Origin: Deinococcales bacterium
GTDB lineage: Bacteria; Deinococcota; Deinococci; Deinococcales; JAAFIG01
NCBI GenBank assembly: GCA_043778225.1
Contig: JAYWGM010000001.1
Span: 1 to 56,085 of the forward strand
Reading direction: 5' to 3'
DNA length: 56,085 nt
A model generated the notes under the pieces. The model was not told the origin of the DNA. It saw only the letters and a list, made by a program, of their open reading frames with translations, and did not search any database. Below are positions 1 to 56,085 of this stretch, in pieces (the stretch's first letter is position 1; each line of letters opens with the position of its first letter). Both the position numbers and the translations under genes were made by a program.

Positions 1-326
1 AGAAACGAGTTTTATCTCGTCAACAACAACCACACTGTCAAAGAACTCGCTCGTACTCGAGGTGACCTCGTGCAGAGCGACAAAGAATGTATCACTAGAT
101 TTGAGAACTGTCAACACTACGGGAGAAAAGAAGGAGGAGGGAGGAGAAAGGCGTGAAGGACACCGTAAAGGGCTGGGACGAGTCTCGAAGAGAATGGGGA
201 AATGGTGGTTGTGAACTTGAGTATAAAGAAAAAGGGGTGGTTTTTTACTTCTCAAGACTCGAGTTGTATGAACCAAACTAGACAGAACACACTATTGGAA
301 ACTTGAGAAGTCAGTACAATAAGTGT

Positions 327-1664
327 ATGACAGCCACGACTCGAGAACCAATCAGCATTGAGCAATTTGTCCATCAGCCTTTTGCTGGTGCGGATGGGTT
401 GATTGCTGGTTCTGACATTTGTGTGCAGTGCGGTATCTGCTTGTCGGCTTGTCCGACCTACCAATTAACGGGCGAAGAAATTCAGAGTCCTCGAGGGCGC
501 GTGATGCTCTACCGTGCGGCGGCTGAGGGCTTGGTGCAAGATTATGAAGTGGTTCTTGAGGCGGCTTATGATTGCCTTGACTGCCGTGCTTGCCAAACGG
601 TCTGTCCTAGTGGCGTGAAACCCGGTGAGTTATCGGTAGAAACTCGGGTGGCATTGCAAAAAGGTAAGCCACCATCTTGGCAAATTGCGGCGATTCTCGA
701 GCCATTCAAGTACCCATGGGCTTGGGATGTGATGAATTTCGGGGTGCGAACGTATCAAGGGCTGGGACTGCAAAAGTGGGTGCGAAAAAGCAAGATTCTC
801 GAGAAATTTGGAAACTTTGGCAAGAAACTAGCCGAACTCGAGAATATTCTGCCTGCCAAAGTTGCACCATCTATTCGTACCAGACTTGCGCCAGTCACAC
901 CAGCCATTGGCGAGCAGCGCGGACGGGTCGCATTTTTCTTGGGTTGCTTGATGAATGCTTTTTTTAGTGAAGCCTCGAGTGCCACAGTCAAAGTTTTAAC
1001 AATTAACGGCTTTGAAGTCGTCACGCCACGCGAAACCACCTGTTGTGGAGCGCCGCACATTGAAGAAGGCGACCGAACTGGCTTTGACCAAGTGGTTAAA
1101 CGCAACCTAGATATGTACGATTTACTCGAGGTGGATGCAATTATCACCGATTGTGCTGGTTGCGGCGCAGAACTCAAAAAATACGCCAAGATGTTCAAAG
1201 AAGACCCAGAATACGCTGCCAAAGCCGAGCGCTTCTCGAGCAAAAGCTATGGGATTTCCGAATTTTTGCGTAAGCATGGATTGCGCGAACTGCCCCAAGC
1301 CGACGCGCCCGAGATGACCGTGACCTACCAAGATGCTTGCCACCTTTGCCACGGGCAGGGATGCAGCACCCAACCACGGGATTTATTAAAGCAAAATCCA
1401 CTGGTGGATTACCGTGAACTCGAGAAAGCCAGTGATTGCTGTGGCAGTGCTGGAATTTACAACATCACCCATCCGGACACGAGTTATAAAATTCTCGAGG
1501 GAAAAATGGAGCGGGTGCGTGAAAGTGGGGCGCAAGTGCTGAGTGTTGAGAATCCGGGTTGCTTATTGCAACTCGAGGCTGGGACACGTAAATACAATGT
1601 GGATGTAGAAGTTCTGCACACCAGTCAGATTTTACTGGCGGCTTACGAGAAAAGCCCAAGATAA
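327..1664 (+). CDS. (Fe-S)-binding oxidoreductase subunit, GlcF/glycolate oxidase-like
   Basis: Two CxxCxxCxxxCP motifs plus two CCG domains (CCGA, CCGSAG). Start placed at ATG 327, 6 nt after TACAAT. Confidence 0.85.
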   Translation: MTATTREPISIEQFVHQPFAGADGLIAGSDICVQCGICLSACPTYQLTGEEIQSPRGRVMLYRAAAEGLVQDYEVVLEAAYDCLDCRACQTVCPSGVKPGELSVETRVALQKGKPPSWQIAAILEPFKYPWAWDVMNFGVRTYQGLGLQKWVRKSKILEKFGNFGKKLAELENILPAKVAPSIRTRLAPVTPAIGEQRGRVAFFLGCLMNAFFSEASSATVKVLTINGFEVVTPRETTCCGAPHIEEGDRTGFDQVVKRNLDMYDLLEVDAIITDCAGCGAELKKYAKMFKEDPEYAAKAERFSSKSYGISEFLRKHGLRELPQADAPEMTVTYQDACHLCHGQGCSTQPRDLLKQNPLVDYRELEKASDCCGSAGIYNITHPDTSYKILEGKMERVRESGAQVLSVENPGCLLQLEAGTRKYNVDVEVLHTSQILLAAYEKSPR

Positions 1665-1668
1665 TGGG

Positions 1669-2166
1669 CTATTTGCTCAGAACATTTTTAAGTGATTCTT
1701 CTTGTGCGCTTGTGTGCAAGCCGTAGCCACGCCAAAGAATATCGCCTTGTTGATTGACCAGCAGCAAGATGGTTTGAGCTTTGCTTTCGCCAATTGCTTG
1801 CAAGAATTTGTCTTGATGTACATATAAACGAATCACCACTTCCGGTAAAACCACATTGGGTACGCCAGAACGCAAACCTGTATCCACCACGGCTCGAGGT
1901 GAAGAATAGATTTGTGGCAATACAGGCATTTCATAGAATTGAAATTCTGGAAACGCTTGGCGTAAACGCACTGCGGCTGGTCGCCATGAAATCGCTTGGA
2001 TACGTTCTGGTTCATTAAAAGAAATAGCGAGTACGTTTAATTTGCCAGCAAAATCTCGAGGGAAATTGAATTGTTTTCCCTCGAGATTTGAACCTCCAAT
2101 ACTTGGGAAATTTCCAGTTTGCAAAAAGGAAAAACCCAGCATCAGCAAAACAGAAATTAAGTTCAT
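1669..2166 (-). CDS. Hypothetical exported protein, thioredoxin-like/ATP10-like
   Basis: Hydrophobic N-terminus; 'GSNLEGKQFNFP..F.GK' and 'LLVNQQGDILWRGYG' redoxin-like pattern without CxxC. Confidence 0.55.
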   Translation of the reverse strand: MNLISVLLMLGFSFLQTGNFPSIGGSNLEGKQFNFPRDFAGKLNVLAISFNEPERIQAISWRPAAVRLRQAFPEFQFYEMPVLPQIYSSPRAVVDTGLRSGVPNVVLPEVVIRLYVHQDKFLQAIGESKAQTILLLVNQQGDILWRGYGLHTSAQEESLKNVLSK

Positions 2167-2218
2167 CCCTCGAGTATCCACCTAATCATGAGTTTTCACT
2201 GATAGCTGCTTGGGTATC

Positions 2219-4030
2219 TCAACGGCTCGAAGCAGGATTGACAGTGCTTGTGGGTCTCGAGACTGGACGGCGAAAAGTGGGTCCAACTTCAAAAATGGCT
2301 TGCCACGGACGATAAACGGTATACAGCCCTTCGGATTGTCCATTGATGGTACGCACCACATTGACATGATAGCCATCCACGGCATAATCCACTTGGCGGC
2401 TAACCCCAGCAGGTAAGCTCGAGTTAAAGATGGTTTTGGCTGGTGGATGCGGGGTGCGGCGTAAAATTCGAGCGCTCGAGATAGCTACTTTGCGCCCATC
2501 AGAGACCCCATACAACTGTATTGTCATTGATGCACCACTGCTGCTGGCGCGAACCACAATTGGACCTGGGGTGTTGTTTGCCATTTTGAGGTCGAGGTTT
2601 GGGTAATAGACAGCCGCATCTAAACCCAGCACATCATCGTAATAACGCACTTTATAGCTGTGTTGATTGCGTTCCACCACGGGTAAACCAGCCCGATACA
2701 GTGCCGCAAAAGCAGTTGTGCTGGCTTGGCAAACTCCGCCGCCAACCCCTTTTTGGGTACGACCACCACTGATGATTAAACCTTCGACAAAGCCAGTTTC
2801 GGGGCTAATATCGCCAACTGCTTGGTTAAAACTAAAGTTATCACCTTTGGGAACAACATAGCCATCGAGTTTACGGGCTGCCACTGCCGCATTGGTGATG
2901 CGTTCACGGCTCGAGCCATAGTAGCGCGTGGTACTCGAGGAAAGCAGCGTTAGGGTCTTTGGGTCTGGCAAAGATGCAGTGCTAACCTTGGGCTTGGTCA
3001 CGACCACTGGCAACTGAATTTCGGGCAAGTTAGGGTCAAGTACGGCAGCCGCCATTGACTTTTTGGCTTCGCCAAGATTGAGGGCATAACCATCTTGCGA
3101 CGAGCGGCGTATCAATTCGGTGCTTTGGCGGGCATATCGAGCATCGAGTGGTGCTTGGTCAAAACGACTCGAGACCGAGCGCAGTATTTGGGCAATGGCT
3201 TTTTCATCTAAGCGTAAGCCAGTCCGTTCGACAAAAAATAAATTGGCGACTTCGGCAGTGCTGAGCGTTCTCGAGCGTGGCTGCCCACTGTTGGGCGTTG
3301 GATAGGTTAATTTTAAGGGGCGCAAAATGCTGTTGGCTTGAGTGGCTAATTCGCTCAAAGATTCGGCTTGAACATTGGCTGGAACATCGGTGATGGTCAG
3401 TTCTAAATCGGTTAAAAGTGGGTTGGCGTTAAAGGACTTGACCGCATTCTCGAAATCCACACCTTGCCCATCAACATCTTGGCGCACCAGATAGTTGTTC
3501 TTGGTCAAAACCAAAGCTGCATCTTTTGGAGAGACCGCAAATGGCGCAGCCAAACTCGAGAGCCGATTGCGAAAGGTTTTCGGGTCTACTTTGGCAAGCA
3601 AGGTCAGGTTTTTATCGCCGCCAAAACGTTTACCCAGATTCTCAAAGAAATCGCCATTGCGTCCGATTTGAAAAGCCGAAGCAACCATGTTGTCGTAATC
3701 TATACGCCAGCCAAGTTCGGTGGCTTGCAGACGCATGGTTTGGTCGCCAGCCCGCACTGCCACCACTGGTATTGGCAGTTTTGCGTCACGCAGGGCTTGC
3801 AGGGCTTCGGGTTGGGTCAAACCGCCAACCGATACACCCGCCGCAGTGATTCCTGGCAAGACACGTTCGGAATGGTACAACTCAAAACCACCCCAAGCTG
3901 CACCAAACGCAGCCACACCCAACAACGGCATCCAAAGGTGACGCGACCGAGGGCTTTTGACGACAACTTTATTGGCAACAGACTGGCTCACTTTAATTTC
4001 ACTCCCATAACGATGCAAAGACTTTATCAC
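2219..4030 (-). CDS. VanW-family protein with peptidoglycan-binding repeats
   Basis: N-terminal TM; 'FSFNQAVG', 'GGGVCQASTT', 'ERNQHS', 'DLKMANNT' VanW motifs. Confidence 0.85.
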   Translation of the reverse strand: MIKSLHRYGSEIKVSQSVANKVVVKSPRSRHLWMPLLGVAAFGAAWGGFELYHSERVLPGITAAGVSVGGLTQPEALQALRDAKLPIPVVAVRAGDQTMRLQATELGWRIDYDNMVASAFQIGRNGDFFENLGKRFGGDKNLTLLAKVDPKTFRNRLSSLAAPFAVSPKDAALVLTKNNYLVRQDVDGQGVDFENAVKSFNANPLLTDLELTITDVPANVQAESLSELATQANSILRPLKLTYPTPNSGQPRSRTLSTAEVANLFFVERTGLRLDEKAIAQILRSVSSRFDQAPLDARYARQSTELIRRSSQDGYALNLGEAKKSMAAAVLDPNLPEIQLPVVVTKPKVSTASLPDPKTLTLLSSSTTRYYGSSRERITNAAVAARKLDGYVVPKGDNFSFNQAVGDISPETGFVEGLIISGGRTQKGVGGGVCQASTTAFAALYRAGLPVVERNQHSYKVRYYDDVLGLDAAVYYPNLDLKMANNTPGPIVVRASSSGASMTIQLYGVSDGRKVAISSARILRRTPHPPAKTIFNSSLPAGVSRQVDYAVDGYHVNVVRTINGQSEGLYTVYRPWQAIFEVGPTFRRPVSRPTSTVNPASSR

Positions 4031-4092
4031 CAGACTCTTTGCAGTACACTGGACTCAAGTCTAGCAAATAGCCATGGGACAATCGTGAATCC

Positions 4093-4812
4093 TTATGCCC
4101 CACGCTCGAGCATCCGCGCTCGACGCAAGGCTGTAAAAATCTCGCTCGGTTGGGCTGAATCAAGCCGCGCCAAACGCAAGCCCAAACCCCTTGTCAGACC
4201 CGCCAAGCCCTCGAGATGCGCCTGCAAACGCTCCATATAACGCCGTCGCGCCGAATCATCTACCTCGAGCGAGCCAGTCCCTTCGGCATCCTGAACTCGC
4301 CATGCACCGGTTGGCGGCTCGAGGTCTTCGACAGACAAAATCTGTAGCCACGAAAGGTCAAAACCACGCGCCGTTAAAGCCGTTAGACCCGACCGAATAC
4401 CCGACAAAGGCTCGAGACCATCTGAAGCCAACAGCACCAAGCCCGGTTTCTCGAGCGCCAGACGCGCCAAACCAGTTTTTAAGTCGGGAATAGTGTGTTC
4501 AAACCAACCATCCAAGCGGGCAAAAGGCTTAGCAAACGCCAAGGCACTTTTGGCAAGCTCGAGTTTATTAGTCATCGAAGCGCTGGTGTCCAAAACGGCA
4601 TAGACCCGCGTGGCACGCTCGGCTGCAAAACGCCGTACAAATAATTTTCCACTGCGGGCATAGACATTCCAATCGATAAAACGCAATTCATCGCCAGCTT
4701 CGTAAATGCGATGCTCGAGAAATTCGCCACCTGAACCCGCAAAACTGGAACGACGTTCACCAGCCCCAGAGGACAGGGCTTGAGAAGCCAGACGATAACC
4801 ACGCAGTTGCAT
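4093..4812 (-). CDS. DUF58 domain protein
   Basis: 'GSGGEFLEHRIYEAGDELRFIDWNVYAR' and 'LDTSASM' motifs; lies downstream of MoxR. Confidence 0.85.
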   Translation of the reverse strand: MQLRGYRLASQALSSGAGERRSSFAGSGGEFLEHRIYEAGDELRFIDWNVYARSGKLFVRRFAAERATRVYAVLDTSASMTNKLELAKSALAFAKPFARLDGWFEHTIPDLKTGLARLALEKPGLVLLASDGLEPLSGIRSGLTALTARGFDLSWLQILSVEDLEPPTGAWRVQDAEGTGSLEVDDSARRRYMERLQAHLEGLAGLTRGLGLRLARLDSAQPSEIFTALRRARMLERGA

Positions 4813-4825
4813 CGGCGTTAGGCAA

Positions 4826-4850
4826 AGGGCGAGGCAAGCCCCGCCCCCAC
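4826..4850. repeat. REP-like palindrome (GTRG family)
   Basis: AGGGCGAGGCAAGCCCCGCCCCCAC; near-identical copy at 22521-22545. Confidence 0.7.
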
Positions 4851-4861
4851 GGTTGAGGGAT

Positions 4862-5797
4862 TCATGATTTCACCGTTGTCAGGACTTTCTCGAGAACATC
4901 TTTAACTTTTACGCCCTCGAGTTCGGCTTCAAACGACAAGCCCATACGGTGATTAGCAATTAAAGGCAAGGCTCGAGTCACGTCCTCGCGGGAGACAAAC
5001 GGACGGGCATTCAAGAGCGCAAACGCCCTTGCCATCGCCAGCATTGCCTGAGCGCCACGCGGCGACAGACCGTACCGCACTCGAGGGTCGGTGTGGGTGG
5101 CTTCGACCAGTTGCACAATGTACTCGAGCATCGGCTGAGAAATTGGCACATCGCGCACCACTGTCCGCAAGACACTGAGTTGCTCGAGTTCCAAAGCAGG
5201 TAGCGGCGCAGCTATTTCGCCAGCCTCGAGAATCCGTTTCAGGGTTTCGGGGCTTGGGCGCTTAAACTCGAGCCGCGCCAAAAATCGGTCTAACTGTGCT
5301 TCGGGAAGCGGATATGTGCCTTCCATCTCGAGCGGATTTTGGGTGGCAATGACCAAAAAAGGCTTAGGGAGTTCGTGGCGTTCGCCGGCAATCGTGACCG
5401 CACCTTCCTGCATGGCTTCTAAAAGTGCCGATTGGGTTTTTGGCGTGGCGCGGTTGATTTCGTCTGCCAGTAAAACTTGGGCAAAAATCGGACCACGCTG
5501 AAAACGGTACTCGAGTCTGCCCTGTGTGGATTCAATAATTTGTGTGCCAGTAATATCGGCGGGCATTAAATCTGGCGTAAACTGCACCCGACGGTACTCG
5601 AGATTGGCAGCTTTGGAAAAACTCGAAGCCAGAAGCGTTTTACCCAGCCCCGGCACGCCCTCGAGCAGCGCATGACCACCCGCCAGCGCCACCGCAATCA
5701 GGTTTTCGACAACCTCGGTTTGACCAATGAGAACCCTTTCTAAACTACTTTTGAGGCGCGTTGCCGCACCATGTACCAAATCTACGCCATCTGCCAT
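4862..5797 (-). CDS. moxR: MoxR-family AAA+ ATPase
   Basis: 'LLEGVPGLGKT', 'QFTPDLMPADITG', 'DEINRA', 'ATQNP', 'LPEAQLDRF'. Confidence 0.92.
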   Translation of the reverse strand: MADGVDLVHGAATRLKSSLERVLIGQTEVVENLIAVALAGGHALLEGVPGLGKTLLASSFSKAANLEYRRVQFTPDLMPADITGTQIIESTQGRLEYRFQRGPIFAQVLLADEINRATPKTQSALLEAMQEGAVTIAGERHELPKPFLVIATQNPLEMEGTYPLPEAQLDRFLARLEFKRPSPETLKRILEAGEIAAPLPALELEQLSVLRTVVRDVPISQPMLEYIVQLVEATHTDPRVRYGLSPRGAQAMLAMARAFALLNARPFVSREDVTRALPLIANHRMGLSFEAELEGVKVKDVLEKVLTTVKS

Positions 5798-5854
5798 AGG
5801 CACAGGCTATCACTCGAGGCATCAAGAAAAGGTGTCGCAAGTATGACAGTTGGT

Positions 5855-5922
5855 ACAAACCTCATATTGGTTCGCTGGACAAACCTCATATTGGTTCACT
5901 GGACAAACCTCATATTGGTTCG
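5855..5922. repeat. 24-bp tandem repeat, ~2.8 copies
   Basis: ACAAACCTCATATTGGTTC(G/A)CTGG starting at 5855, 5879 and 5903. Confidence 0.9.
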
Positions 5923-5935
5923 TTAAAGTGTATTC

Positions 5936-6007
5936 ATGATTTTGGTCTTACACCCGCAGCCGCCAACCACAAAGTGCCTCATCTTGGCGGTGGGTGGGGG
6001 CGCGTAA
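5936..6007 (+). CDS. Putative proS leader peptide MILVLHPQPPTTKCLILAVGGGA
   Basis: ATG 6 nt after TAAAGT; Pro codons at 5954, 5960 and 5963; TAA at 6005-6007, followed by a terminator. Confidence 0.65.
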   Translation: MILVLHPQPPTTKCLILAVGGGA

Positions 6008-6032
6008 CACGGGTTTCATCTTCTCGAGATTC

Positions 6033-6056
6033 CCGAGCCGCTTGGCTCGGTTTTTT
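6033..6056 (+). terminator. Attenuator terminator in the proS leader
   Basis: CCGAGCC-GCTT-GGCTCGG followed by TTTTTT, ending 35 nt before the proS ATG. Confidence 0.75.
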
Positions 6057-6090
6057 ATTCTCACTCCATAGTTCATTATTCGAGGTCGCT

Positions 6091-7800: not shown

Positions 7801-7865
7801 GCAGACATCACCCCTTGACGCACCAAACCCTGTGTGATACATTTCCCATCCGCGCAAGTGCGTGA

Positions 7866-7942
<77 letters not shown>

Positions 7943-7948
7943 AAGAAT

Positions 7949-7974
7949 AACCCCGTTCTAAACGGGGTTTTTTG
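7949..7974 (+). terminator. Rho-independent terminator
   Basis: AACCCCGTT-CTA-AACGGGGTT followed by a T-run. Confidence 0.75.
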
Positions 7975-11715: not shown

Positions 11716-11840
11716 ACCTCATCACTCGAGGGTAAAATTGAAGGCATGAAAGCCATCAAACGCAAGGAATTCTCGAGTTTTAATTTAAGCCAAGCACTGA
11801 CTCTGGCATTCTCGAGCCAGAGTGTATTACAGTGTCGGGC

Positions 11841-14357: not shown

Positions 14358-14358
14358 A

Positions 14359-15504: not shown

Positions 15505-15933
15505 TCAACCCTCAATACTCGGATAAAACCATTCGCTCTCCCCCGAAAAACACCAACACAAAGCAATTCTAGCCCCTTGCCCAAAAACAATAGCATTTTG
15601 ATTGAAATCTTGTGCCAGACTGATGATTTGCTCGAGTGGCACATCCCAAACAATAAAGCCAGCTTCTGACCACGATAGCTCGAGATTCTGCCCGTAACTG
15701 TCGGCAAATGCCCAGCCAAAGGACAGCAAAACCGCTTTCAGGTTGGCGTTGCGGGCTAAATTTTCTTCGTCAGAAAGCGGCGTGCTGCGTGGATTCTGTG
15801 CCGAAATCAAAGCAAATGTCCGCCCTTCAAACAACTCCAGACCTGTCTCGAGGCTCGAGAAACGAAAACCCAAACCTTGGGCATGGTAGCTCGTGGCGAG
15901 ATATGCCGCACGAAAAATTTGATCTGGGTGCAT
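15505..15933 (-). CDS. DUF3293-like protein
   Basis: 'AYLATSY', 'ISAQNPRS...EN..RN', 'W.E', 'FNQNAI' pattern. Confidence 0.75.
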   Translation of the reverse strand: MHPDQIFRAAYLATSYHAQGLGFRFSSLETGLELFEGRTFALISAQNPRSTPLSDEENLARNANLKAVLLSFGWAFADSYGQNLELSWSEAGFIVWDVPLEQIISLAQDFNQNAIVFGQGARIALCWCFSGESEWFYPSIEG

Positions 15934-19400: not shown

Positions 19401-22400
19401 CTATGCCAACCACGCTTGGACACTCGAGACGGCTAACTCTGACCCGCCTACCTTCTCGAGCGCACTGACTAGCCACTCCGCAGCTTCTAAAGTCGTATAA
19501 AGCGCTGCTCCATGCTCCAAAGCACGGCGCGATAGTCTCGAGGCGGTCAGGTCAATCAGAATATCTGGTATCGCCGTGCTGTCATTACTCGAGGTGAGGT
19601 GCTGGACACTGTAACCAAGCGCGGTAAACCTTTGCTCGAGATTCGGGTTTTGCTGCCCGACAAATAAGACACTTCCCGTGAGGGGCAGTTTGACGTTCGC
19701 GCCAAGCTGAGCGCGGTAATACGCAAGGAATGGGTCTGCGTCTATGCCCATGCTTTCGCCAGTGCTTTTCATTTCAGGACCTAGAACTGGAATCACATCC
19801 TTAAATTTCAGGAATGGTAAATGAACTTCTTTGACGCTGTAATGGCTTGGTACAACACTTTGCGTAAAGCCAATTGTTTCGAGGCTTTGCCCAACAGCAA
19901 TTCGAGCAGCGTATTTTGCCAAGGGATGCCCAATCGCTTTAGACACAAATGGCACAGTGCGACTGGCTCGAGGGTTGGCTTCTAGGATATAGAGTAAATT
20001 GTCATGCACCGCGTATTGCACATTCATTAAGCCAAGTACCCCAAGCTCGAGCGCCAGACGTTTGGTGCTGACATGGACTTCCTCGAGCAGCGCTTGGCTT
20101 AAATGCACCGGCGGTAAAATACAAGCACTATCGCCGCTATGAATCCCAGCCGCTTCAATGTGTTCCATCACGCCGGCAATCACAGCAACTTTGCCATCAC
20201 ATAAACAGTCAACATCGAGTTCAAGAGCATTCTCGAGAAAGGTATCGAGCAAAATACTCGGGTTGCCCTCGACCGCCGCATAGACTTCTCGTAGGTAGGT
20301 CTCGAGTTCGGTTTGGCTCTGTACGGTTCGCATCGCCCGACCACCCAACACATAACTTGGGCGTGCCATCAGTGGAAAACCCAAGTCTTTTGCCAGTTTA
20401 AGGGCTTGTCCGGGGGTATTCGCCACTGCGCCTTTGGGCTGACGAATGCCGAGTCGGTCGCAGAGCAAATTAAACTCGAGTCTGTCTTCGGCAGTATGAA
20501 TCGCACTTGGCGATGTCCCGATTATTGGAGCGCCAGCCGCCTCGAGGACTTTGGCAAGTTTAAGCGGGGTTTGTCCACCAAGTTGCACAATCACGCCAAT
20601 CGGCTTTTCGTGTTCGACAATGTTCATCACGTCTTCAAAAGTTAAAGGCTCGAAATACAAACGGTCAGCGGTGTCGTAATCGGTACTGACGGTCTCGGGG
20701 TTGGAGTTGACCATGATGGTTTCATAGCCCAACTCGCGCAGCGCCCAGACGGCATGAACCGTCGCGTAATCAAATTCGACACCTTGTCCAATGCGGTTAG
20801 GTCCAGAACCGAGAATCATGATTTTTTGTTTGTCGGTGGCACGAACCTCATCTTCCCATTCGTAGCTCGAGTAATGGTACGGCGTGTGGGCTTCAAATTC
20901 AGCAGCACAGGTATCCACGGTTTTATAGACAGGCAGGCATTTAGCAGCTTTACGCAGCGCTCGAATCTCGAGTTCGGTTTTGCCACGCAATTCACCAATT
21001 CGCGCATCGGAAATTCCAAGGCGTTTAATTTCACGCCATGTTTCGTACTTCCAAGTCTCGAGCGAGCCAAGGGTCTGGATTTCTTTTTCGACTTCGATAA
21101 TTTCAGATAACTGAAACAAAAACCATGGGTCTATAGCTGTTTTCTTATGCAACTCGGCAACACTTACGCCGCGCCCCAGAAACTCGAGAATCGCCAGATA
21201 ACGCTTTGGATTTGCCTCGAGTAAAACCTCGAGTTGCGAGGCAGTCATGGTTTCAAAACCACCTCGAATATCGTTTTCCAAACTCCGCAGGGCTTTCATA
21301 AACGATTCTTTGAAGGTGCGCCCAATCGCCATGACCTCGCCGACCGAACGCATTTGGGTGTTTAAGCGCTCAGGTGTGCCGGGGAATTTTTCAAAAGCAA
21401 ATCTTGGAATTTTGGTGACCACATAATCGATGCTCGGCTCAAAACTGGCGGGTGTGACCTTAGTAATGTCGTTTGGCAATTCATCGAGGTAATACCCAGC
21501 CGCCAAAAGTGCTGCAATTTTGGCAATCGGAAAACCCGTGGCTTTAGAAGCCAGTGCGCTGCTCCTCGAGACTCGAGGGTTCATTTCAATCACCACCACC
21601 CGACCATCGGCGGGGTTAATCGCGTACTGAATGTTACTACCGCCCGTGTCCACCCCAATTTCGCGGATAACCGCTAAGCTGGCATCACGCAAGCGCTGAT
21701 ATTCTTTGTCAGACAAGGTTTGTTGTGGGGCAACCGTGATGCTGTCGCCGGTATGCACCCCCATCGGGTCAAAATTTTCGATACTGGTGATGATTAAAGC
21801 TGTGTCGTTGGTGTCCCGCATCACCTCGAGTTCAAATTCTTTCCAGCCCAAGACACTTTCTTCGATTAAAACCGTGCCGACCGGCGACAGGTGCAAACCA
21901 CTTGCCACGATTTCCTTAAACTCGGCTTCGTCGTAAGCAATCCCGCCACCTGTACCGCCCAAGGTAAAACTTGGGCGGATAATCGCTGGGTAGCCAACTT
22001 CTTTCACAAAGCCCAGTGCTTCCTCGAGCGTGGCAACCATCTGTCCTTTAGCGACTTCCAAACCAATTTTTTTCATGGCGATCGCAAATTTTTGGCGGTC
22101 TTCGCCTTTTTCGATCGCTTCTTTATTTGCACCAATTAACTCAACACCATATTTCTCGAGAATTCCCGCATCTGCCAGTGCCAAACTTAGGTTTAAGCCA
22201 GTCTGCCCACCAAGGGTTGGCAAAATTGCACTTGGGCGCTCTTTAATAATCACTTTCTCGAGAAAATCCAAAGTCAAAGGCTCGAGATAGGTGGCATCGG
22301 CAAGTTCTGGGTCGGTCATGATTGTGGCGGGGTTAGAATTGACCAGAATGACCCGAAATCCCGCATTTTTGAGGGCTTTGACGGCTTGTGTGCCACTGTA

Positions 22401-22481
22401 GTCAAACTCGGCAGCTTGACCGATTTGAATAGGACCTGAACCGATAATCAGAATGGTCTGTAAATCTGTGCGTTTTGGCAT
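19401..22481 (-). CDS. carB: Carbamoyl-phosphate synthase large subunit
   Basis: '[25 protein letters not shown]', two ATP-grasp domains, '[10 protein letters not shown]'. Confidence 0.97.
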
Positions 22482-22520
22482 GGAAACCTCGAGAGGAGAA
22501 TTGTGGCTTGCTTGAGTGGC

Positions 22521-22545
22521 AGGGCGAGGCAAGCCCCGCCCCTAC
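22521..22545. repeat. REP-like palindrome (GTAG family)
   Basis: Reverse complement reads GTAGGGGCGGGGCTTGCCTCGCCCT; copy at 4826. Confidence 0.72.
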
Positions 22546-22621
22546 GGATTTTTGTTTTTGATTTGTGGTCTTGTGCCAGCCCTGTGACTCATCATTTTTT
22601 TCTTGCTGCTGCAAACCTTAA

Positions 22622-22660
22622 ACTGCATAAAGAATACATTTTTCTGCATAAAAATACGAG
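22622..22660. promoter_or_regulatory. Putative tandem ARG boxes upstream of carB
   Basis: TGCATAAAGAATACA and TGCATAAAAATACG, with starts 21 bp apart as in tandem ArgR operators. Confidence 0.55.
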
Positions 22661-22725
22661 ACTTTATTCAAGTCTCGAGGAATCTCGAGCCATGATTGTA
22701 TCACAATTATCTGCTTAGACAAGGG

Positions 22726-25069: not shown

Positions 25070-25072
25070 GCT

Positions 25073-33357: not shown

Positions 33358-33433
<76 letters not shown>

Positions 33434-47697: not shown

Positions 47698-47772
47698 GGC
47701 CCCGTCATCTAGCGGTTAGGATAACGCCCTTTCAAGGCGTGTACACGAGTTCGATTCTCGTCGGGGTCACCA
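47698..47772 (+). tRNA. tRNA-Glu (TTC)
   Basis: ACGCC-CTTTCAA-GGCGT anticodon arm, CCA end; TTGACG-17-TACCTT promoter; terminator at 47776-47804. Confidence 0.95.
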
Positions 47773-47807: not shown

Positions 47808-48515
47808 TTATTTCTTGGCACTGCCATTTTTAATCACATCGGCGATGACACTTGGTAAATCCCAAGTCAAAATGTCAAAGGCTGCCGCCGAAAAGTTATA
47901 AGGCACTTTGTACAACTCAACTCGCAATTTAGCACCATTAAAGTCCAGAATTGCACAATCTGCGCCCGGCTCGCCATTGAGGCTTAAACCAACACTGCCG
48001 GGATTAATAATAAAACCTTGGTTGACTTCTCTCACCCCAGGAACATGGCTGCCACCCGTGATAAAAATCTGGCAATTCATTTTCTCGAGCAATTCGTTGA
48101 GATTTTTTTGCGAATCGGCTAAGTCCACTTTGGCATCTGGGTCGTCGGGTAGACCGTGCATAAAGCGCACTCGTCCATGAGCCGTCTGCATTTTGCCAGT
48201 CATCGGTAAGGCTCGCATCCATTTGAAATCGTCGGTGGACAATCTGGTCTTGCTCCATTCGATCGTTTGGTCAGCAATGCCAAGCCGAACTTCTTTGGTC
48301 AGCAAATCAAAAACCAATCGGGCTTCGCTTGAACCCATGGTCGTGCTGACTTCGTTTTCGCGCACAAAACGCAGCACTTCGTCAGGGGTTGCACCATAAC
48401 CGACCAAATCGCCTAAGCAGATAATTTGGGTGACGTGTAAATCTTGAAATTTTTTCCAGACGGCACGTAAAGCATGAATGTTTGCATGAAGGTCGCTGAT
48501 AATGCCAAGTCTCAC
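47808..48515 (-). CDS. Metallophosphoesterase (YfcE-like)
   Basis: 'SDLHAN', 'GDLVGYG', 'NPGSVG'; GNH and HTH positions appear as GSS and GSH. Confidence 0.82.
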   Translation of the reverse strand: MRLGIISDLHANIHALRAVWKKFQDLHVTQIICLGDLVGYGATPDEVLRFVRENEVSTTMGSSEARLVFDLLTKEVRLGIADQTIEWSKTRLSTDDFKWMRALPMTGKMQTAHGRVRFMHGLPDDPDAKVDLADSQKNLNELLEKMNCQIFITGGSHVPGVREVNQGFIINPGSVGLSLNGEPGADCAILDFNGAKLRVELYKVPYNFSAAAFDILTWDLPSVIADVIKNGSAKK

Positions 48516-48587
48516 ACTGTTCAGTCTACTCGAGAATCGGTCCAAAGTGCCAATTCTAACCTTTAGCAGTGTTATCATCCTGCCGCC

Positions 48588-50168: not shown

Positions 50169-50222
50169 GACGACAAATGACCGCCCATTAACGTTTTTTT
50201 TTGTTAGAATTTTTACAGTACA

Positions 50223-50981
50223 ATGCCGATTGTCATTCCAGACTTGCACGGACGCGCTGACCTTCTCGAGGCGGTGGTCAAGTATTATCCCAAAGAAACC
50301 CAATTTATTTTTTTAGGCGATGCCATAGACCGCGGTCCGGACTCGAGGGGCTGTGTTCGTCAATTGCTTGAGTTATCCGATGCTGGACGAATTATTTTGC
50401 TGCGTGGCAACCACGAAAGTATGCTCTCGACGGCTGCCGAATACGACCGCCTTGCCCAAGAACTTGGCGACGCAACAATGCTCAAAACGGCTCGAGAAGA
50501 GTTTGTTAATTGGCAGCGCAATGGTGGCAATGCCCTTTTTAGGGAATATGGTTTTTTTGGTCCCGGTAATGTCCCCGACGATTTACTCGAGTTTATTCGC
50601 CGTACCCGTTTAGCCTATGAAAGCCCGAATCATTATTTATGTTCTCATGCCGCGCCGCCAGTTTTGCTTGACCGCTATCAGACGGTGGCAGATTCGATGC
50701 TCTGGGCGCGTCCCAACGAAGGTCCTTTTGAACTCGACAAGCATCTTTTGGGCAGTATTCATGGGCATACGCCTTTGGCTGTGCCGACGTGGGTTGAACG
50801 GCACTTGTACATTGACCTAGGTGCAGTTTTTAGCGGCAACTTATGCACTGTCAATCTCGATACCCTCGAGACAATTGTGCTGCGTGGTGCGGGTGGTGTC
50901 GGACGTGAAGCTCTACTCGAGCTTGCCTCGGACGAGGACGGCTTGGTGCGCGAACAGCCTTTTAGAATCGTCGAGGTCTAA
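50223..50981 (+). CDS. PPP-family (PrpA/ApaH-like) metallophosphatase
   Basis: 'DLHG', 'GDAIDRG', 'RGNHE', 'HGHTP', 'IDLGA'. Confidence 0.87.
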   Translation: MPIVIPDLHGRADLLEAVVKYYPKETQFIFLGDAIDRGPDSRGCVRQLLELSDAGRIILLRGNHESMLSTAAEYDRLAQELGDATMLKTAREEFVNWQRNGGNALFREYGFFGPGNVPDDLLEFIRRTRLAYESPNHYLCSHAAPPVLLDRYQTVADSMLWARPNEGPFELDKHLLGSIHGHTPLAVPTWVERHLYIDLGAVFSGNLCTVNLDTLETIVLRGAGGVGREALLELASDEDGLVREQPFRIVEV

Positions 50982-51094
50982 AATGCCTCGAGCCTAAGCA
51001 TTGAATTCTTTACTTTGTCCAAAACTGTTGCAAGATGAACGTTTCCATAGTTTTTCACGCATCTTCTCAGGCAAACTCGCTTAGAATGACCTAG

Positions 51095-54000
51095 ATGCGT
51101 CGTTGGTTTGCTTTTCTAGCTGGGTTCATTATTGTGTTGGGACTGGCGGTCTTTTTGGCGGCGGGTTCACAGCCAGCCTTGCGTTTTGCCTTGGCACAAG
51201 CCAAAGCGGCGGGTTTTGAAGTAGATGCCAAGTCTTTGCGTGGCAATTTATTTTTGGGCTTAGAAGCCACCGATGCCAGCCTTAAAAGTGCGTTTATCAA
51301 TGGTACTGGGGCTTCGGTACGTGCCAAGTACAACCTTTGGAATCTGCTGCAAAAGCGTGAACTGCGACTCGAGGCAGCCGTTTCGGGTGGGCGTTTGAGT
51401 TTTGACCCAACGGGTTTACCGCCAGTTATCGTGGGCGGCGAACCTGCACCAATCAGCGTTTTTTTAGACAAAGCCGAATTAACCGACACCCAAGTTAGGT
51501 TTATCGGTAAAAATTTATTTATCCCCGATGCTAAAATTACCCTACTAAGCCAAACGCCTTTACCAAGTCAAAATGGTCGGATTCGTGGCAATCTACGAGT
51601 CAAGCTCGAGTCCAAAGATGGCGCTGGATTTGCTACGGCGCTTTACGAATTTGGCAAGGATTTTGACGCTAATCTGGTGATTGATGCCGAACTCGATGCC
51701 AAGATAGCCAATTATTGGCTCAAGCCAATTCCCATGGCAATTCAGAGCGGGAAATTGCGCGGCACAGTGCGGGTCACGGGGGCAAACCTGAGCGCCGAGG
51801 CAACTTTACAAAATGGCAGTCTCGAGGTTCTGCCCGGTTTAAGCGCCACGGGTCTAGCTGGGCGAGCTTCGTTCGATGGGCTTGTGGTCAAAGCCAATCT
51901 AACAGGGCAAGGCTTAGGCGGCAGTCTCGAGGCAGATTTTTCTTTGGACACCCGACCAAAACGCGAGCAGTGGGAAGTAACAGGCAAACTCCGCCCACGG
52001 CTCGAGCAAATCATGAAAACCTTTGCCAACGGCACACCCGGTCGTGGGGCGCTGGAAGTGACCGTAACGGGTGGCGGCTGGGAGAAAATTAGATTATCTG
52101 GTACAGCAAAAGGTCTACAGGCACTCGAGGCGGCTGGTTTTCCGATAGAAAATTTCCAAGCCACATGGCAATTGACCGACCGCCTGACCGCCCAAGCCAC
52201 CGCCTTCACTCGAGTTGGCGCAGACAGACTCAAAGCCGTAGCTGACCTAAAAACCATTGGTCAGCGCGTGCTGATAGAGGCGGCTCTGACTGGCAATTTC
52301 CTAAATGCGCCGCTTGCCTTAAATGGTTTAATAGAAGCCCTCGGCGATAAAGTCAGCATTGAAGCATCTGGTACAGGTTTAGGCGGCGCGGTCAATGCCA
52401 AAATCGGCTTAAAAGGCGAGAAAATTTCGGGCAGTGGCAAATTGACCAAAGTCCAACTGCCGCTTCCTTCTCCTGTTACCTCGAGTCTGGACACCAGTGC
52501 TAACATTTCTGGGACGGTCAATAACTTTGCAATTACAGGCTACCTCAGTCCAGCCCAAATCAAGATTCCAGCCGTCAGCCTGACCGATATTTCTGGGGCA
52601 TACAAACTGAGGTTTAATGGTCAAGCCCTAACGCTCGAGGCAAACCTCGCCGATGGGGCAGTGGTTGCCAGTGGCGCACTGGTCAACACCGATGGTAAAC
52701 CGGCTCGAGGGCAAGTCAGTCTGCGCGGTGTTGGCTTTACGCCCGGCGGAAAAGCCGATTATCAAGCCCAATATGTGATCAATAGCGCAGGGGTCGCCTT
52801 GTCGGGGGTGGCTCGAGCCTACGACCTCAATTTTGCCGAAGCGCGTTTAGACAACCTCTCTGGGGTGCTGAGCCTTTCTATTGGGCAGCAGTTGCGTGGA
52901 CGTTGGAATGCCAATTATTTGCTGGCAACCTTGACCGAAAAATCCTTAAACCTTCGTCCTCGAGCTTGGCGGGTGCAGGCGGCGGGCGAAACGGCTTTTG
53001 TGGCGGGCGACATGACCCTGAGTTATGCTGGGCTAAAAACCACGGGGAAACTCGAGGGCAAAACCCGCTTTGGTACGATTACAGCGCTTGGGGCTGGCTC
53101 AGAAATCACTTTGTCGGGCAATGCAGGCTACAGTGGCTTACGGGCAGCCTTAAAAGGTTCGTTGCGCCTTGAGCCATTTGCTTTGCGCTTGGTGGCTGTG
53201 CCACAAAATAAGAATCTGGGTGGCAGAATTTTACTCGAGGCAAGCAAAGATTTTCGGGTCAGCGGCAATCTGGTCAGCAACGGTCAGAACTTAGAAATCG
53301 GCTACGGTAATTTAGGTTTAACTGCCCAAGGAAAACTGGATTTAACTGCTCTTGCGCCGCTTTTGCCGCGTGGCTCGCAGAATTTAATTGCGGGTCTGGC
53401 GGATTTTAAGCTCAAGAACTCGAGCGGCACAGCCCAAATAGATGGCACAGTGGCTGGAATTCCAATTGTGGCACAGCTTCGTTCTAACAACTTGCGCTTG
53501 ATTGCCCAAGCGACCGTCAGCACAGGGCAATTTGCAGGCGCAAAATTATCGGGCGATGTTTTTCCGGGTTTGAATGCCCGTCTGGTCTATGGCGGCATCA
53601 CGGCACGGGTTTCTGGAGCATACGACAACATTTTGATGGCTGGGGCTGGAAAAATACCAGACAGGCTGCTCGCGGGGACAGGTCTATCCCTAGCCAATAA
53701 TAATTTTAAGCTGACCGGTCGGATTCAAAATGGGCAAATAACCGCTTCTGGCAACCTTGGTGGTTTACAAATCCAGAATGCCAGACTCGAGAATGGACTG
53801 GTTCGAGCGGGGTTTTCTGGGGATTTAACAGGGGCATATCAAAACGCGCCTCTGCGCTTACAAAACCTTCAAGGTCAACTCGAGCAAACACCAACTGGTT
53901 TGGTGCTTTCGACTCGCGCTACAAATGCCACTGGGGTATTTTCGGGCAATTCAATCCGCGCCAGTGGGCTACAAGCCAAGCTCGAGCAAAAAAATGGCGC

Positions 54001-56085
54001 AAATAACCTGAGCTTAACCGCCTCGAGTGCAGTCGTCAAAACACCACTTGGTGTGTTGCTGGCTTCGGGTCTCAAAGCGGTCGGCGACCAAAAACAGCTT
54101 GCGGTCTCAGCCGCTTGGCTCGAGGCAACTGGATTTGAAGCCAAAGCACGACTCGAGCGCATTCTAGGGAATATCAGTCTAGGAAAAGTGCTTGGATTTG
54201 CGGTTAATTTTAAGGCAGGCAATCTAAATCACCCACAAGTCACAGCCAATTTAGGCGCAGGGCAGGTCTCGGGCAAATTACAAGGTCAAAGCCTCGAGAC
54301 CGTCTTTGACTTGCCCAAAATAACTGCCAGCAGCCGTGGCGAAAGCGCTAATCTGGCTGCCCAAGGCAATTTGGCAATCAATCTCGAGCAGCCGTTGCAA
54401 GACTGGCGCGGTTGGCTGAGCGCCAAAGCCATTGGGCAAGACTGGCGCTTAGGGGCAACTGGCAATTGGCAAAATCTGCGTTTAAGTGGCAATTTGCCAA
54501 GCCGTCTCTCGAGTCTGGCTGGGGTGGGGTTGCCTTTCAAAAGTAATCTGGCAGTGAGCGGCACACTTGGACTGCCCGATTTACGTTATAGCCTTGGTGT
54601 TATCTCAAAGCTGCCCAACCAACAGCATCCGCTTCAAATCAATCTCAGCCTCAAAGGACAAAGCCGCCAGCTTAACGCCCGACTCGAGGCAAAAAGTCTA
54701 AATGGGACAGGAAAAATCAGCTATACCTCGAGCGGCACAGCTTTGGCAGAATTCAAGAATCTAGACCTGACTAGCCTTACGGCTACCCAAACAACCATTT
54801 CGGGTCAGCTTGGTCTGGATGGACTGGCGCTGCGTGGCAAACTCAACGGACAAGTGGCTGGGCTGCCAGTAACCGCGACTTGGCTCGAGAATGGTGCTTT
54901 TTCGGGGACAGTTGGCGGTTCGTTGCCCATCAAGCTCAGTGCCGACAAATGGCGTTTTCCACTGGATACCATTCTGGCGCTCGAGACCGAGCCTTCCCAA
55001 TTGCCGCTTCGTGGTACAGCTCGTTTTAATCTTGGGGCATTGCGCGGACAAGGACAACTCGAATTACTCGAGTACAGCCAAAATCTTGGCGGCGGCAACG
55101 TGGCAATCCAGCCACAAGTCATGCCGTTTCAGGTCTCACTGAACAATGGCTTGCGCTTGCGGCTCGAGAATGCTGCTGGGGCATTGCGTTTGGATAAGAC
55201 TTGGAGCGGCTCGCTTGGTTTGGCATACCGCGCTTTTGAGCAAAATGGTGTGGCGACGGCTCGAGTTTCTGGGGCATTGGACAAGCCCAACCTCATCCTT
55301 GAGACCACTGGACTTTTGCAACTGCGTGGGTCTGGCAACCTCGAGAATGCCAGTCTGAACGGGCGTTTGGCGTTGCAGCCGCTTTTGGGTATGCTGCCCA
55401 AAGAATTACAAACAGGACTGGTGGCTGGTACAGCACAACTCGAGGCAACTTGGAAAAATGACACACTGACATTCAAGACCAAGCTCGAGAATACCCAATT
55501 CGAGCGCCAAGCAGTGCGACTAGATTTGTCTGGAAGGTTCAAAAACAGCACTTGGAGCGCCAAAGGCGAGGTCGCGGTTGGCACCAGTCGCTCGAGTTTC
55601 GAGGCTTCCGAGGCTGGGATTAAAGCGCCAAAAATCGATTTGGATTTGCGTTTGGCGCGTTTTTTTGGCTTAGATTTGAGCGGACAAGTCAGTGGGCGAC
55701 TCGAGTTGCCAAAATATCAGCTCGCGAACCTCGAGGCAGACTTAAAAGTGCGCCAAGTGCGTGGCTTTGGCGTGTCTGCCGATGGATTTTTAGAAGCCAG
55801 CCAAGGAAGAATCAACACCAATCTGCGCGGTCAGACACCGCTTGACCTCGAGTACAGCCTGACTGGGGTGTTGTACCCAAACCTCAATCTGGCAGTGCAA
55901 CTCGGGCAACTCGAGGGGCGGGTTTTGGGCAATCGCCTTGAGTCGCCCAGCCGCCAAATAAGTCTGGACTTAGCCGGTCTGTACCTTAACAAAAGCACCA
56001 GCCTTAGAGCCGAAATAGTGGGCGATCAAATTCGGGCTAATGCCACTTGGGATGCCGCTAAACTCGAGGCAACTGGCGAAATCTC
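51095..56085 (+). CDS. Very large TamB/AsmA-like envelope protein (partial, runs off the window)
   Basis: ATG 7 nt after TAGAAT; N-terminal anchor MRRWFAFLAGFIIVLGLAVFL, then Gly/Leu-rich beta-strand repeats. Absent from the ORF track, consistent with no stop before the window end (>1660 codons). Confidence 0.72.
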   Translation, partial: MRRWFAFLAGFIIVLGLAVFLAAGSQPALRFALAQAKAAGFEVDAKSLRGNLFLGLEATDASLKSAFINGTGASVRAKYNLWNLLQKRELRLEAAVSGGRLSFDPTGLPPVIVGGEPAPISVFLDKAELTDTQVRFIGKNLFIPDAKITLLSQTPLPSQNGRIRGNLRVKLESKDGAGFATALYEFGKDFDANLVIDAELDAKIANYWLKPIPMAIQSGKLRGTVRVTGANLSAEATLQNGSLEVLPGLSATGLAGRASFDGLVVKANLTGQGLGGSLEADFSLDTRPKREQWEVTGKLRPRLEQIMKTFANGTPGRGALEVTVTGGGWEKIRLSGTAKGLQALEAAGFPIENFQATWQLTDRLTAQATAFTRVGADRLKAVADLKTIGQRVLIEAALTGNFLNAPLALNGLIEALGDKVSIEASGTGLGGAVNAKIGLKGEKISGSGKLTKVQLPLPSPVTSSLDTSANISGTVNNFAITGYLSPAQIKIPAVSLTDISGAYKLRFNGQALTLEANLADGAVVASGALVNTDGKPARGQVSLRGVGFTPGGKADYQAQYVINSAGVALSGVARAYDLNFAEARLDNLSGVLSLSIGQQLRGRWNANYLLATLTEKSLNLRPRAWRVQAAGETAFVAGDMTLSYAGLKTTGKLEGKTRFGTITALGAGSEITLSGNAGYSGLRAALKGSLRLEPFALRLVAVPQNKNLGGRILLEASKDFRVSGNLVSNGQNLEIGYGNLGLTAQGKLDLTALAPLLPRGSQNLIAGLADFKLKNSSGTAQIDGTVAGIPIVAQLRSNNLRLIAQATVSTGQFAGAKLSGDVFPGLNARLVYGGITARVSGAYDNILMAGAGKIPDRLLAGTGLSLANNNFKLTGRIQNGQITASGNLGGLQIQNARLENGLVRAGFSGDLTGAYQNAPLRLQNLQGQLEQTPTGLVLSTRATNATGVFSGNSIRASGLQAKLEQKNGANNLSLTASSAVVKTPLGVLLASGLKAVGDQKQLAVSAAWLEATGFEAKARLERILGNISLGKVLGFAVNFKAGNLNHPQVTANLGAGQVSGKLQGQSLETVFDLPKITASSRGESANLAAQGNLAINLEQPLQDWRGWLSAKAIGQDWRLGATGNWQNLRLSGNLPSRLSSLAGVGLPFKSNLAVSGTLGLPDLRYSLGVISKLPNQQHPLQINLSLKGQSRQLNARLEAKSLNGTGKISYTSSGTALAEFKNLDLTSLTATQTTISGQLGLDGLALRGKLNGQVAGLPVTATWLENGAFSGTVGGSLPIKLSADKWRFPLDTILALETEPSQLPLRGTARFNLGALRGQGQLELLEYSQNLGGGNVAIQPQVMPFQVSLNNGLRLRLENAAGALRLDKTWSGSLGLAYRAFEQNGVATARVSGALDKPNLILETTGLLQLRGSGNLENASLNGRLALQPLLGMLPKELQTGLVAGTAQLEATWKNDTLTFKTKLENTQFERQAVRLDLSGRFKNSTWSAKGEVAVGTSRSSFEASEAGIKAPKIDLDLRLARFFGLDLSGQVSGRLELPKYQLANLEADLKVRQVRGFGVSADGFLEASQGRINTNLRGQTPLDLEYSLTGVLYPNLNLAVQLGQLEGRVLGNRLESPSRQISLDLAGLYLNKSTSLRAEIVGDQIRANATWDAAKLEATGEI

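Follow-up and report, generated by a model that had tools for sequence, protein, structure and literature searches.

A 56,085-nt stretch of DNA from an uncultured member of the Deinococcales (contig JAYWGM010000001.1 of assembly GCA_043778225.1; hereafter 'the window') carries protein-coding genes, among them carB, and three tRNA genes, and is strewn throughout with the six-base palindrome CTCGAG. The hexamer occurs 373 times (6.65 sites per kb), across genes and spacers, and is the subject of this report. An earlier reading made from the letters alone (the sequence-only reading) had proposed that CTCGAG is a highly iterated palindrome (HIP) comparable to HIP1 of cyanobacteria (GCGATCGC). Its hand tally of about 370 sites, 61 of them in the first 8 kb, against about 14 expected, agrees with the exact count, with a recount that likewise gave 61, and with a base-composition expectation of 13.7. 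Here, we establish that CTCGAG is a genuine HIP of an uncultured Deinococcales family, the second independent case besides cyanobacteria, and we weigh what may maintain it.

Abundance of CTCGAG in genes and spacers

When the window was shuffled 100 times with its dinucleotide composition preserved, CTCGAG appeared 7.8 times on average and at most 16 times, and no shuffle attained 373. The window corresponds to contig C1 of a genome of 4.03 Mb in 107 contigs (G000; 89% complete, without a 16S gene). That genome holds 24,877 sites (6.17/kb, or roughly one per 160 bp), 26.7 times the number expected from base composition, at densities of 4.98–7.14/kb on each contig longer than 20 kb. CTCGAG is the commonest hexamer of G000, with 4.7 times the count of the commonest unrelated one (5,347 copies; overlapping hexamers were set aside). 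Observed-to-expected ratios (o/e) under Markov models of orders 0–4 are 26.7, 47.5, 15.1, 3.6, and 1.16, and the collapse at orders 3 and 4 is built in, because 89% of CTCGA pentamers lie inside CTCGAG. The o/e from base composition and the dinucleotide-based 47.5 both exceed the abundance threshold for HIPs, which is an o/e above about 16 (Xu et al. 2018). As the bases flanking CTCGAG are nearly random, the word is exactly six bases long; among NTCGAN hexamers, the C...G combination alone is enriched, with 68% of all TCGA tetramers inside CTCGAG. The sequence of G000 was also recovered in contigs from two samples of one study; none of 29 minor-strain variants fell inside CTCGAG, where only about 1.4 were expected, so that this comparison has no power.

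Coding DNA was represented by 3,326 non-overlapping open reading frames (ORFs) of at least 120 amino acids, which cover 88% of G000 and serve as a proxy for the output of a gene finder. CTCGAG density is 6.19/kb in these ORFs, 6.12/kb (o/e 31) in non-ORF DNA, and 6.5/kb in spacers of 1–60 bp, and its profile over stop codons and gene ends is flat at 5.4–7.8/kb. The 68 predicted tRNAs of G000 contain 6 sites against 32.6 expected at genomic density, and the three tRNAs of the window contain none, as the sequence-only reading had stated.

All three coding frames share in the excess. Frames 0 (Leu-Glu), 1, and 2 of the G000 ORFs hold 12,993, 4,436, and 4,554 sites, against 1,660, 388, and 327 after synonymous codons were shuffled within genes (an excess of 7.8-, 11.4-, and 13.9-fold); frame 0 accounts for 59% of coding sites, and shuffling codon order leaves 1,012 sites in total. 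The 40 ORFs of the window have 189, 56, and 66 sites in the three frames, against 24, 4.6, and 5.4 when amino acids and codon usage are kept, and their total of 311 compares with a maximum of 49 in 100 codon-usage-preserving shuffles. The ORF caller skipped an open-ended ORF at 51095–56083, in which 29 of the 62 'non-ORF' sites of the window actually lie. Leu-Glu dipeptides are spelled CTCGAG in 189 of 266 cases in the window and in 69% of cases in G000. Leucine is encoded by CTC in 88% of cases before GAG and in 9.5% if the next codon starts without G, glutamate is encoded by GAG in 93% of cases after CTC versus 37% after other leucine codons, and TCG and CGA codons show the same context dependence in the other two frames. 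In terms of odds, the pressure for CTCGAG outweighs the preference among synonymous codons about 60-fold. Further claims of the sequence-only reading are borne out as well: sites do occur in all three frames and in the five intergenic positions that it had named (all between ORFs; Table 1), and codon bias alone does not account for them, given the shuffles, the equal density outside ORFs, and the context-dependent codon choice. The excess is neither lost on shuffling nor confined to a single frame, the two outcomes that it had listed as counting against its proposal. The pressure is exerted on the double-stranded hexamer as such, inside and outside coding DNA, and neither codons, peptides, RNA, nor a longer repeat drives the excess.

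The word has also changed proteins. Leu-Glu is the most over-represented dipeptide of G000 (o/e 2.32; Glu-Leu 0.97). Around carB, its o/e is 2.3–2.4 in CTCGAG-rich metagenome-assembled genomes (MAGs) versus 1.12 in 16 Deinococcus loci, in which 12 of 620 Leu-Glu dipeptides are spelled CTCGAG. CarB itself contains 26 Leu-Glu in G000, 20–25 in other carriers of the word, and 6–11 in non-carriers; Deinococcus carB orthologues lack CTCGAG altogether (with 10 Leu-Glu in locus L010). CTCGAG pressure has more than doubled the Leu-Glu content of proteins.

Conservation and spacing of the sites

Conservation was measured in 42 alignments (94.6 kb) among same-genus genomes at 72–84% DNA identity, the observations being non-independent. 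CTCGAG is kept in 72.6% of 1,278 site observations, against 27.4% for all hexamers, and ranks second of 580. Of the 26 carB sites of G000, 21–22 are positionally common to three f1-like MAGs of the family, 13 to the deep lineage L009 (whose protein, at 73% identity, is as distant as that of Deinococcus), and 5 to a MAG labelled Trueperaceae. At unshared sites with a partner one substitution away, transitions account for 93 of 116 differences (37 at C1/G6, 42 at C3/G4, and 14 at T2/A5); decay is symmetric at the two C positions, hence without sign of a methylcytosine hotspot. The one-off neighbours TTCGAG (o/e 1.39), CTTGAG (1.40), CCCGAG (1.18), ATCGAG (0.92), and GTCGAG (0.84) stand near their expected frequencies in G000 and have not been drained, from which we infer that the pressure acts on the fixation of variants, through selection or biased conversion, rather than on mutation.

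In the divergent spacer with three sites (Table 1), the middle site is invariant in five of five same-genus genomes, inside a conserved block, and the site at 11725 is specific to G000. The block itself (11740–11795; GGCATGAAAG ... AAACGCAA.GAATTCTCGAGTTTTA) is near-invariant in these five genomes, with diverging flanks, and may be a regulatory element or leader.

Islands of low GC content (33–46%; Table 1) hold 0–11 sites per 5 kb versus a mean of 31, the extreme being C44:57.5–62.5 kb, with a GC content of 33% and no site. These islands look like recently imported DNA, and the one on C40 contains decayed methyltransferase fragments. Because sites are positionally common to deep lineages and recently imported islands are without them, the pressure is both old and continuing.

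Neighbouring sites exclude one another at short range. Their pair correlation is 0.39 at 6–17 bp, 0.8–0.95 up to 65 bp, 1.00–1.09 to 600 bp, and about 1.0 by 3 kb. No significant period was found in spacings up to 3 kb, which gives no support to a regularly spaced form of the chromosome-organising signal that the sequence-only reading had suggested. Very long gaps are scarcer than in permuted controls (0.89-fold, z = -3.7). Gaps of 300–800 bp are also in deficit, but this does not reflect regular spacing, since the pair correlation shows no trend past about 65 bp. Short-range exclusion persists when Leu-Glu positions and per-gene counts are kept (0.37-fold at 7–12 bp, z = -15) and reaches 0.73-fold among Leu-Glu positions at 13–21 bp. 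Outside ORFs, it is much weaker (0.55-fold at 8–11 bp and 0.89-fold at 12–17 bp), and we therefore read it as a local in-gene cost, such as palindrome–palindrome hairpins or stacked codon constraints. Repulsion between sites as a protein footprint or as density homeostasis was considered and rejected, the effect being mostly one of coding regions. Spacing 7 (CTCGAGNCTCGAG) escapes exclusion, with 123 pairs versus 30–53 for each spacing from 8 to 11 and 1.42 times the expectation outside ORFs; spacing 6, which would make GAGCTC, does not occur anywhere in the genome.

As a separate observation, G000 avoids nearly all other palindromes. In its 4.03 Mb, GGCC occurs only 131 times (o/e 0.01), and GATC has an o/e of 0.13. 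Among the 64 palindromic hexamers, 35 have an o/e of at most 0.10 (GGCGCC has 3 copies, and GGGCCC, AGGCCT, and GACGTC have 1 each), and usually one hexamer per four-base core is spared (e.g. TTGCAA, AGCGCT, and TGTACA). The control word GAGCTC is near-absent throughout the family.

Table 1. Coordinates of CTCGAG sites and associated features in the window (plain positions) and on other contigs of G000 (contig numbers)
Feature	Position	Strand	Remark
CTCGAG word	1..56085	.	373 copies, three frames plus spacers
tRNA-Met	7866..7942	+	no CTCGAG
Divergent spacer	11716..11831	.	three sites (11725, 11772, 11811)
Paired sites	15847..15859	.	7 bp apart; second example 21565-21577
carB, carbamoyl-phosphate synthase large subunit	19401..22532	-	26 CTCGAG, 26 Leu-Glu
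Spacer	22533..22725	.	two sites 10 bp apart (22674, 22684)
Two further tRNAs	33358-33433 and 47698-47772		no CTCGAG
Low-GC islands	C44:57501-65000; C34:20001-32500; C93:5001-15000; C41:55001-60000; C40:7501-12500
Contigs with methyltransferase domains	C65, C92, C95, C93, C99, C9, C64, C8, C79, C101
Further methyltransferase contigs	C41, C40, C80, C33, C38, C2, C55, C66, C89

Two stretches of the window, 3–240 and 4810–4864, recur at 81–97% identity on many relatives' contigs, often at contig ends, and window 1–234 matches G000:C89:1–234 at 82%. These recurrent stretches look like assembly-breaking dispersed repeats.

Range across the phylum and candidate methyltransferases

The family comprises 19 genomes in five genera, 17 of them fragmented MAGs (57–94% complete); as kin, they are not independent. 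Each of the other 18 genomes carries CTCGAG at 4.3–6.8/kb. The wider sample adds 150 high-quality genomes from elsewhere in the phylum, with densities based on rounded genome sizes. Genus g7 (77 genomes), probably Deinococcus, avoids the word (0.01–0.27/kb), and densities are 0.6–1.6/kb in genus g9, 1.4–3.4/kb in genera g13–g15, and 0.6–2.9/kb in families f2 and f4. Synonymous shuffles of small samples (24–92 kb) gave ratios of 10-fold at two loci of the family, 4.1-fold in G114 and 3.4-fold in G086 (both of family f5), 2.6-fold in G165, 1.5-fold in G019, 0.84-fold (no excess) in G022, and 0.07-fold at four Deinococcus loci. A low-GC Deinococcaceae MAG (L034, GC content 48%) has no CTCGAG in 23 kb, so low GC is not the cause. 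Plasmid pMESIL01 of Allomeiothermus silvanus carries 1.26/kb, 1.8-fold over shuffle. Among 80 ranked viral loci of at least 4 kb from the matches listed, most of the 25 with the highest density are high-GC contigs where GAGCTC and GGCC are frequent too, and none of these 25 shows the CTCGAG signature of the family.

Methylation of CTCGAG has been documented in cultured relatives. Blow et al. (2016; PMC4752239, S3 Table) list Type II N6-methyladenine (m6A) enzymes for this word, with the cognate-endonuclease column empty, in Marinithermus hydrothermalis (M.Mhy14884I, Marky_0034; 94.6% of CTCGAG detected as modified), Meiothermus chliarophilus (M.Mch9957IV; 94.1%), and Meiothermus ruber (M.Mru1279II, Mrub_2385; 99.5%). 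In the text and table rows covered here, that paper does not report the abundance of CTCGAG, and its main text treats the word only for an orphan family of Nocardia, in which the motif clusters at the origin. These enzymes share word and phylum with the present case, and the excess in their carriers is real but weaker (2–3.4/kb); they have no orthologue in this family.

Two enzyme types, each with an Eco57I catalytic domain and a TaqI_C domain and each situated between housekeeping genes, appear to correspond to published ones: a 479-amino-acid enzyme of G025 (at about 34 kb) to Marky_0034, and the G030-type enzyme (2.44 Mb of the single-contig G038) to M.Mru1279II. Homologues of the former occur at 53–55% identity in g9 and in the family only as 25–33% catalytic-domain matches; a G000 enzyme of the same architecture (L120) is present in 3 of the 19 family genomes. 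The G030-type enzyme was found in 7 of 26 g13, 3 of 3 g15, 0 of 4 g14, and 1 of 25 g9 genomes (the last weak, at 30%), and no homologue was found in the family. Genomes without it reach 3.4/kb (G086), 3.1/kb (G114), and 3.0/kb (G076), and three enzyme-free g14 genomes have 2.7–3.4/kb, compared with 2.2–3.1/kb in genomes with the enzyme.

An XhoI-family endonuclease (PF04555) is present in none of the 19 family genomes, so that any CTCGAG enzyme there would be an orphan. The related genome G021 encodes a complete one (312 amino acids), convergent with a beta-class methyltransferase of 340 amino acids (locus L161, G021:C1:74361–78062), and nonetheless has 1.7 CTCGAG/kb; orthologues of that methyltransferase (62–63%) were found only in G022 and G027 and none in the family. 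G000 has about 20 DNA-methyltransferase domains (Table 1) of the classes Type I, IIG, ISP, MmeI-like, beta, C5, and D12, two of them TaqI-like; by match, there are 8 Eco57I-class, 5–6 N6/N4, 6 C5, and 3–4 D12. Almost none is shared with sister genera, none has orthologues throughout the representatives chosen from the four remaining genera, and no methyltransferase orthologue shared by the five genera was found in PF00145, PF01555, PF02086, PF02384, or PF07669. The closed family genome G013, with 23,515 CTCGAG, encodes seven methyltransferases, of which one is C5, two are D12, and four are N6; three of the N6 enzymes were scanned and proved to be HsdM-type, the remaining one being an ORF of 1,111 amino acids. 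G013 has no beta-class methyltransferase; its six comparable methyltransferases reach at most 34% identity in G000, against 72–78% for neighbouring housekeeping genes. The CTCGAG density of methyltransferase genes was tried as a measure of their age and set aside, since most have 3–7.7/kb and do not discriminate. Methyltransferase specificity was not predictable from sequence in this analysis, which was based on assembled contigs.

The link to methyltransferases drawn by the sequence-only reading has fared unevenly. It is supported by the published m6A of three cultured relatives; it falters in that no methyltransferase was found to be common to the family genomes and that, in family f5, presence of the apparent M.Mru1279II does not track CTCGAG density.

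Cultured members of the phylum include naturally transformable species. G000 encodes ComEC (C71) and DprA (C89), which would make transformation possible; these genes are necessary, not sufficient, for an uptake signal. The DprA gene and one for a D12-class adenine methyltransferase are about 1.6 kb apart (G000:C89:21497–22123 and C89:23686–24825).

What may maintain the word

The parallel with HIP1 proposed by the sequence-only reading holds statistically, in abundance, in the use of all frames and of non-coding DNA, and in positional conservation, as far as the sections of Xu et al. (2018; PMC5861425) drawn on here allow comparison. Like HIP1 and the alternate HIPs, CTCGAG is a single GC-rich, hyper-abundant palindrome (27-fold here and 15- to 300-fold for HIP1; PMC4390886 and PMC5861425, in part) whose positions are conserved over control words, which is scarce in imported DNA and clade-wide, and whose function is unexplained. 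Unlike HIP1, it has six bases rather than eight, exceeds a density of one per kb about sixfold, and belongs to a different phylum; moreover, HIP1 genomes generally carry two matching orphan enzymes, according to the same sections, whereas the carrier family here is without a conserved methyltransferase. HIP1 is quasi-periodic at 18–94 kb, and the spacing analysis in the 107-contig G000 covers up to 3 kb only. Elhai (2015; PMC4390886) describes, in the parts used here, frequent alternate HIPs as always accompanied by a matching methyltransferase, and the main text of that paper mentions neither CTCGAG nor Deinococcus nor Thermus. More recent work on HIP1 points toward uptake or recombination (10.1101/2024.09.10.611283 and PMC13756078, each in part). 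Elsewhere, 5-methylcytosine at CTCGAG is described in a Halorubrum with 560 sites (PMC8112702), and PMC2843746 contained nothing relevant. CTCGAG hyper-abundance itself is new to the literature searched, in which we found no report of it, subscription journals and Fig. 3D of Blow et al. lying outside the scope of the search.

The reading that we favour, if only tentatively, is that CTCGAG is maintained by a transmission bias that operates when DNA is exchanged or recombined, exerted through a conserved reader, with methylation as an accessory. By analogy with known systems, a conserved factor would read the symmetric duplex CTCGAG during DNA exchange or recombinational repair; the bias would be one of uptake or of heteroduplex conversion, as modelled for uptake sequences and proposed for HIP1, and alleles carrying CTCGAG would thereby be transmitted preferentially. 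The m6A at CTCGAG would form an additional layer—protection from XhoI-type enzymes or modulation of the reader—and would not be the driver; we treat it as secondary because CTCGAG methylation is neither universal in the phylum nor correlated with abundance. The uptake sequences of Pasteurellaceae (uptake signal sequences) and Neisseriaceae (DNA uptake sequences) are 9–12 bp long, oriented, and spaced at about one per kb, and a receptor has been identified in Neisseria. Like them (PMC13756078, in part), CTCGAG is a clade-specific word in genes and spacers that reshapes proteins in lineages with competence genes, and it may accumulate by transmission bias rather than by per-site benefit. Unlike them, it is a palindrome with nearly random flanks, at 6/kb and with no receptor known.

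Several points weigh against a transmission bias. This analysis turned up no reader protein, no uptake receptor, and no machinery for conversion, and the link to exchange is by analogy. A 6-bp palindrome is unlike the known uptake sequences (9–12 bp, oriented), and 6 sites per kb put several on any kb-sized fragment, so that uptake bias should saturate well below this density. It is on account of the missing reader protein and of a density that seems too high for fragment-level uptake bias that our preference is tentative. Positional conservation cannot separate selection from biased conversion, and short-range exclusion says little about the footprint of a reader. Since specificity was unpredictable here, each genome may possess a different, non-orthologous CTCGAG methyltransferase, and the fragmented state of 17 of the 19 family genomes limits the methyltransferase comparison.

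A broader version of transmission bias is more doubtful. It holds that HIPs, instead of being peculiar to cyanobacteria and bound to certain orphan methyltransferases, are a general outcome of sequence-specific transmission bias (for instance, biased heteroduplex conversion among genome copies or among cells) in recombination-proficient, naturally transformable lineages and that CTCGAG is an ancient word of the Deinococcota that has outlasted methyltransferase turnover. CTCGAG would then predate the split of the family from Meiothermus-, Marinithermus-, and Truepera-like lineages and would have disappeared from the Thermus-like genus g9 and given way to avoidance in Deinococcus.

Methylation-coupled repair of the type proposed by Elhai, in which mismatch correction that senses the mark of an orphan CTCGAG methyltransferase restores or creates sites, which then accumulate neutrally, strikes us as unlikely. 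A precedent for a methylation-linked repair bias that raises the frequency of a palindrome is Dcm/Vsr very-short-patch repair in Escherichia coli, which enriches CCWGG and depletes CTWGG around two-fold. Here, enrichment is 27-fold, no Vsr (PF03852) was found in the 89% complete genome, T-containing neighbours are enriched rather than depleted, decay is symmetric at the C positions, and G000 has no match to MutH; the results on Vsr and on the T-containing neighbours give no support to a very-short-patch form of the repair-driven process that the sequence-only reading had entertained. In favour of methylation-coupled repair stand the active, endonuclease-less m6A enzymes that modify 94–99.5% of CTCGAG in three cultured relatives (PMC4752239, in part), the position of their apparent counterparts between housekeeping genes, the approximately 20 methyltransferase domains of G000 with two TaqI-like ones among them, the orphan state that any CTCGAG enzyme of the family would have, and the matching methyltransferases that accompany alternate HIPs elsewhere (PMC4390886, in part). 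Yet no methyltransferase orthologue is family-wide, the G013 enzymes diverge far beyond their neighbours, L120 and the matches to the TaqI-family enzyme of G025 are sparse or partial, and enzyme presence is uncoupled from density in f5.

About as improbable is a direct function of each site, whereby a DNA-binding protein of the nucleoid, replication, or repair needs frequent CTCGAG and ordinary selection keeps every copy. Strong positional conservation, spacers included, would fit, as would the equal density of genes and spacers, the amino-acid cost accepted, and the reduced number of very long gaps; the clustering of the motif at the origin in Nocardia indicates that the word can serve replication control elsewhere (PMC4752239, in part). 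Against this, sites are distributed essentially at random beyond about 65 bp without a significant period to 3 kb, density is flat over gene boundaries, selection on each of some 25,000 sites would impose a large load, and no candidate protein was found. Nor does CTCGAG match Chi, a strand-oriented word that RecBCD or AddAB recognises: palindromes have no orientation, and RecC gave no match in G000 (AddAB was not searched).

CTCGAG is the recognition word of XhoI/PaeR7I-type restriction–modification, of which G021 has a pair, and unlike restriction targets, which are normally avoided (as in g7), it is enriched in this family. That the word is what remains after restriction pressure has forbidden so many other palindromes is very improbable: the rarity of more than half of the palindromic hexamers and of GGCC and the wealth of methyltransferase domains lend the idea some colour, but only two of the 12 spellings of Leu-Glu (those containing CTAG) hold an avoided word and CTCGAG is still used in 69% of cases, the intergenic excess is 31-fold, and other tolerated palindromes reach only 1–2.5-fold. 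Nor can the excess be put down to biased use of codons or dipeptides, to dispersed repeats, or to faulty assembly, despite the preponderance of frame 0; shuffle controls, intergenic density, random flanks, the same signal in 19 separately assembled genomes, and recovery of the sequence in contigs of two samples contradict this group of explanations.

To our knowledge, HIP1 has lacked an explanation for some thirty years, and all comparisons have stayed within a single phylum and, in essence, a single word. CTCGAG provides an independent case, with another word in another phylum, and its persistence without a shared methyltransferase bears on whether methylation creates HIPs or merely decorates them. 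In the cultured relative Meiothermus ruber, the gene for the CTCGAG m6A methyltransferase has been published, is active, and could be deleted (PMC4752239, in part). For the clade itself, the Leu-Glu and Ser-Ser composition bias that stems from CTCGAG matters for phylogenetics and codon models, and scarcity of the word can flag imported DNA in these genomes.

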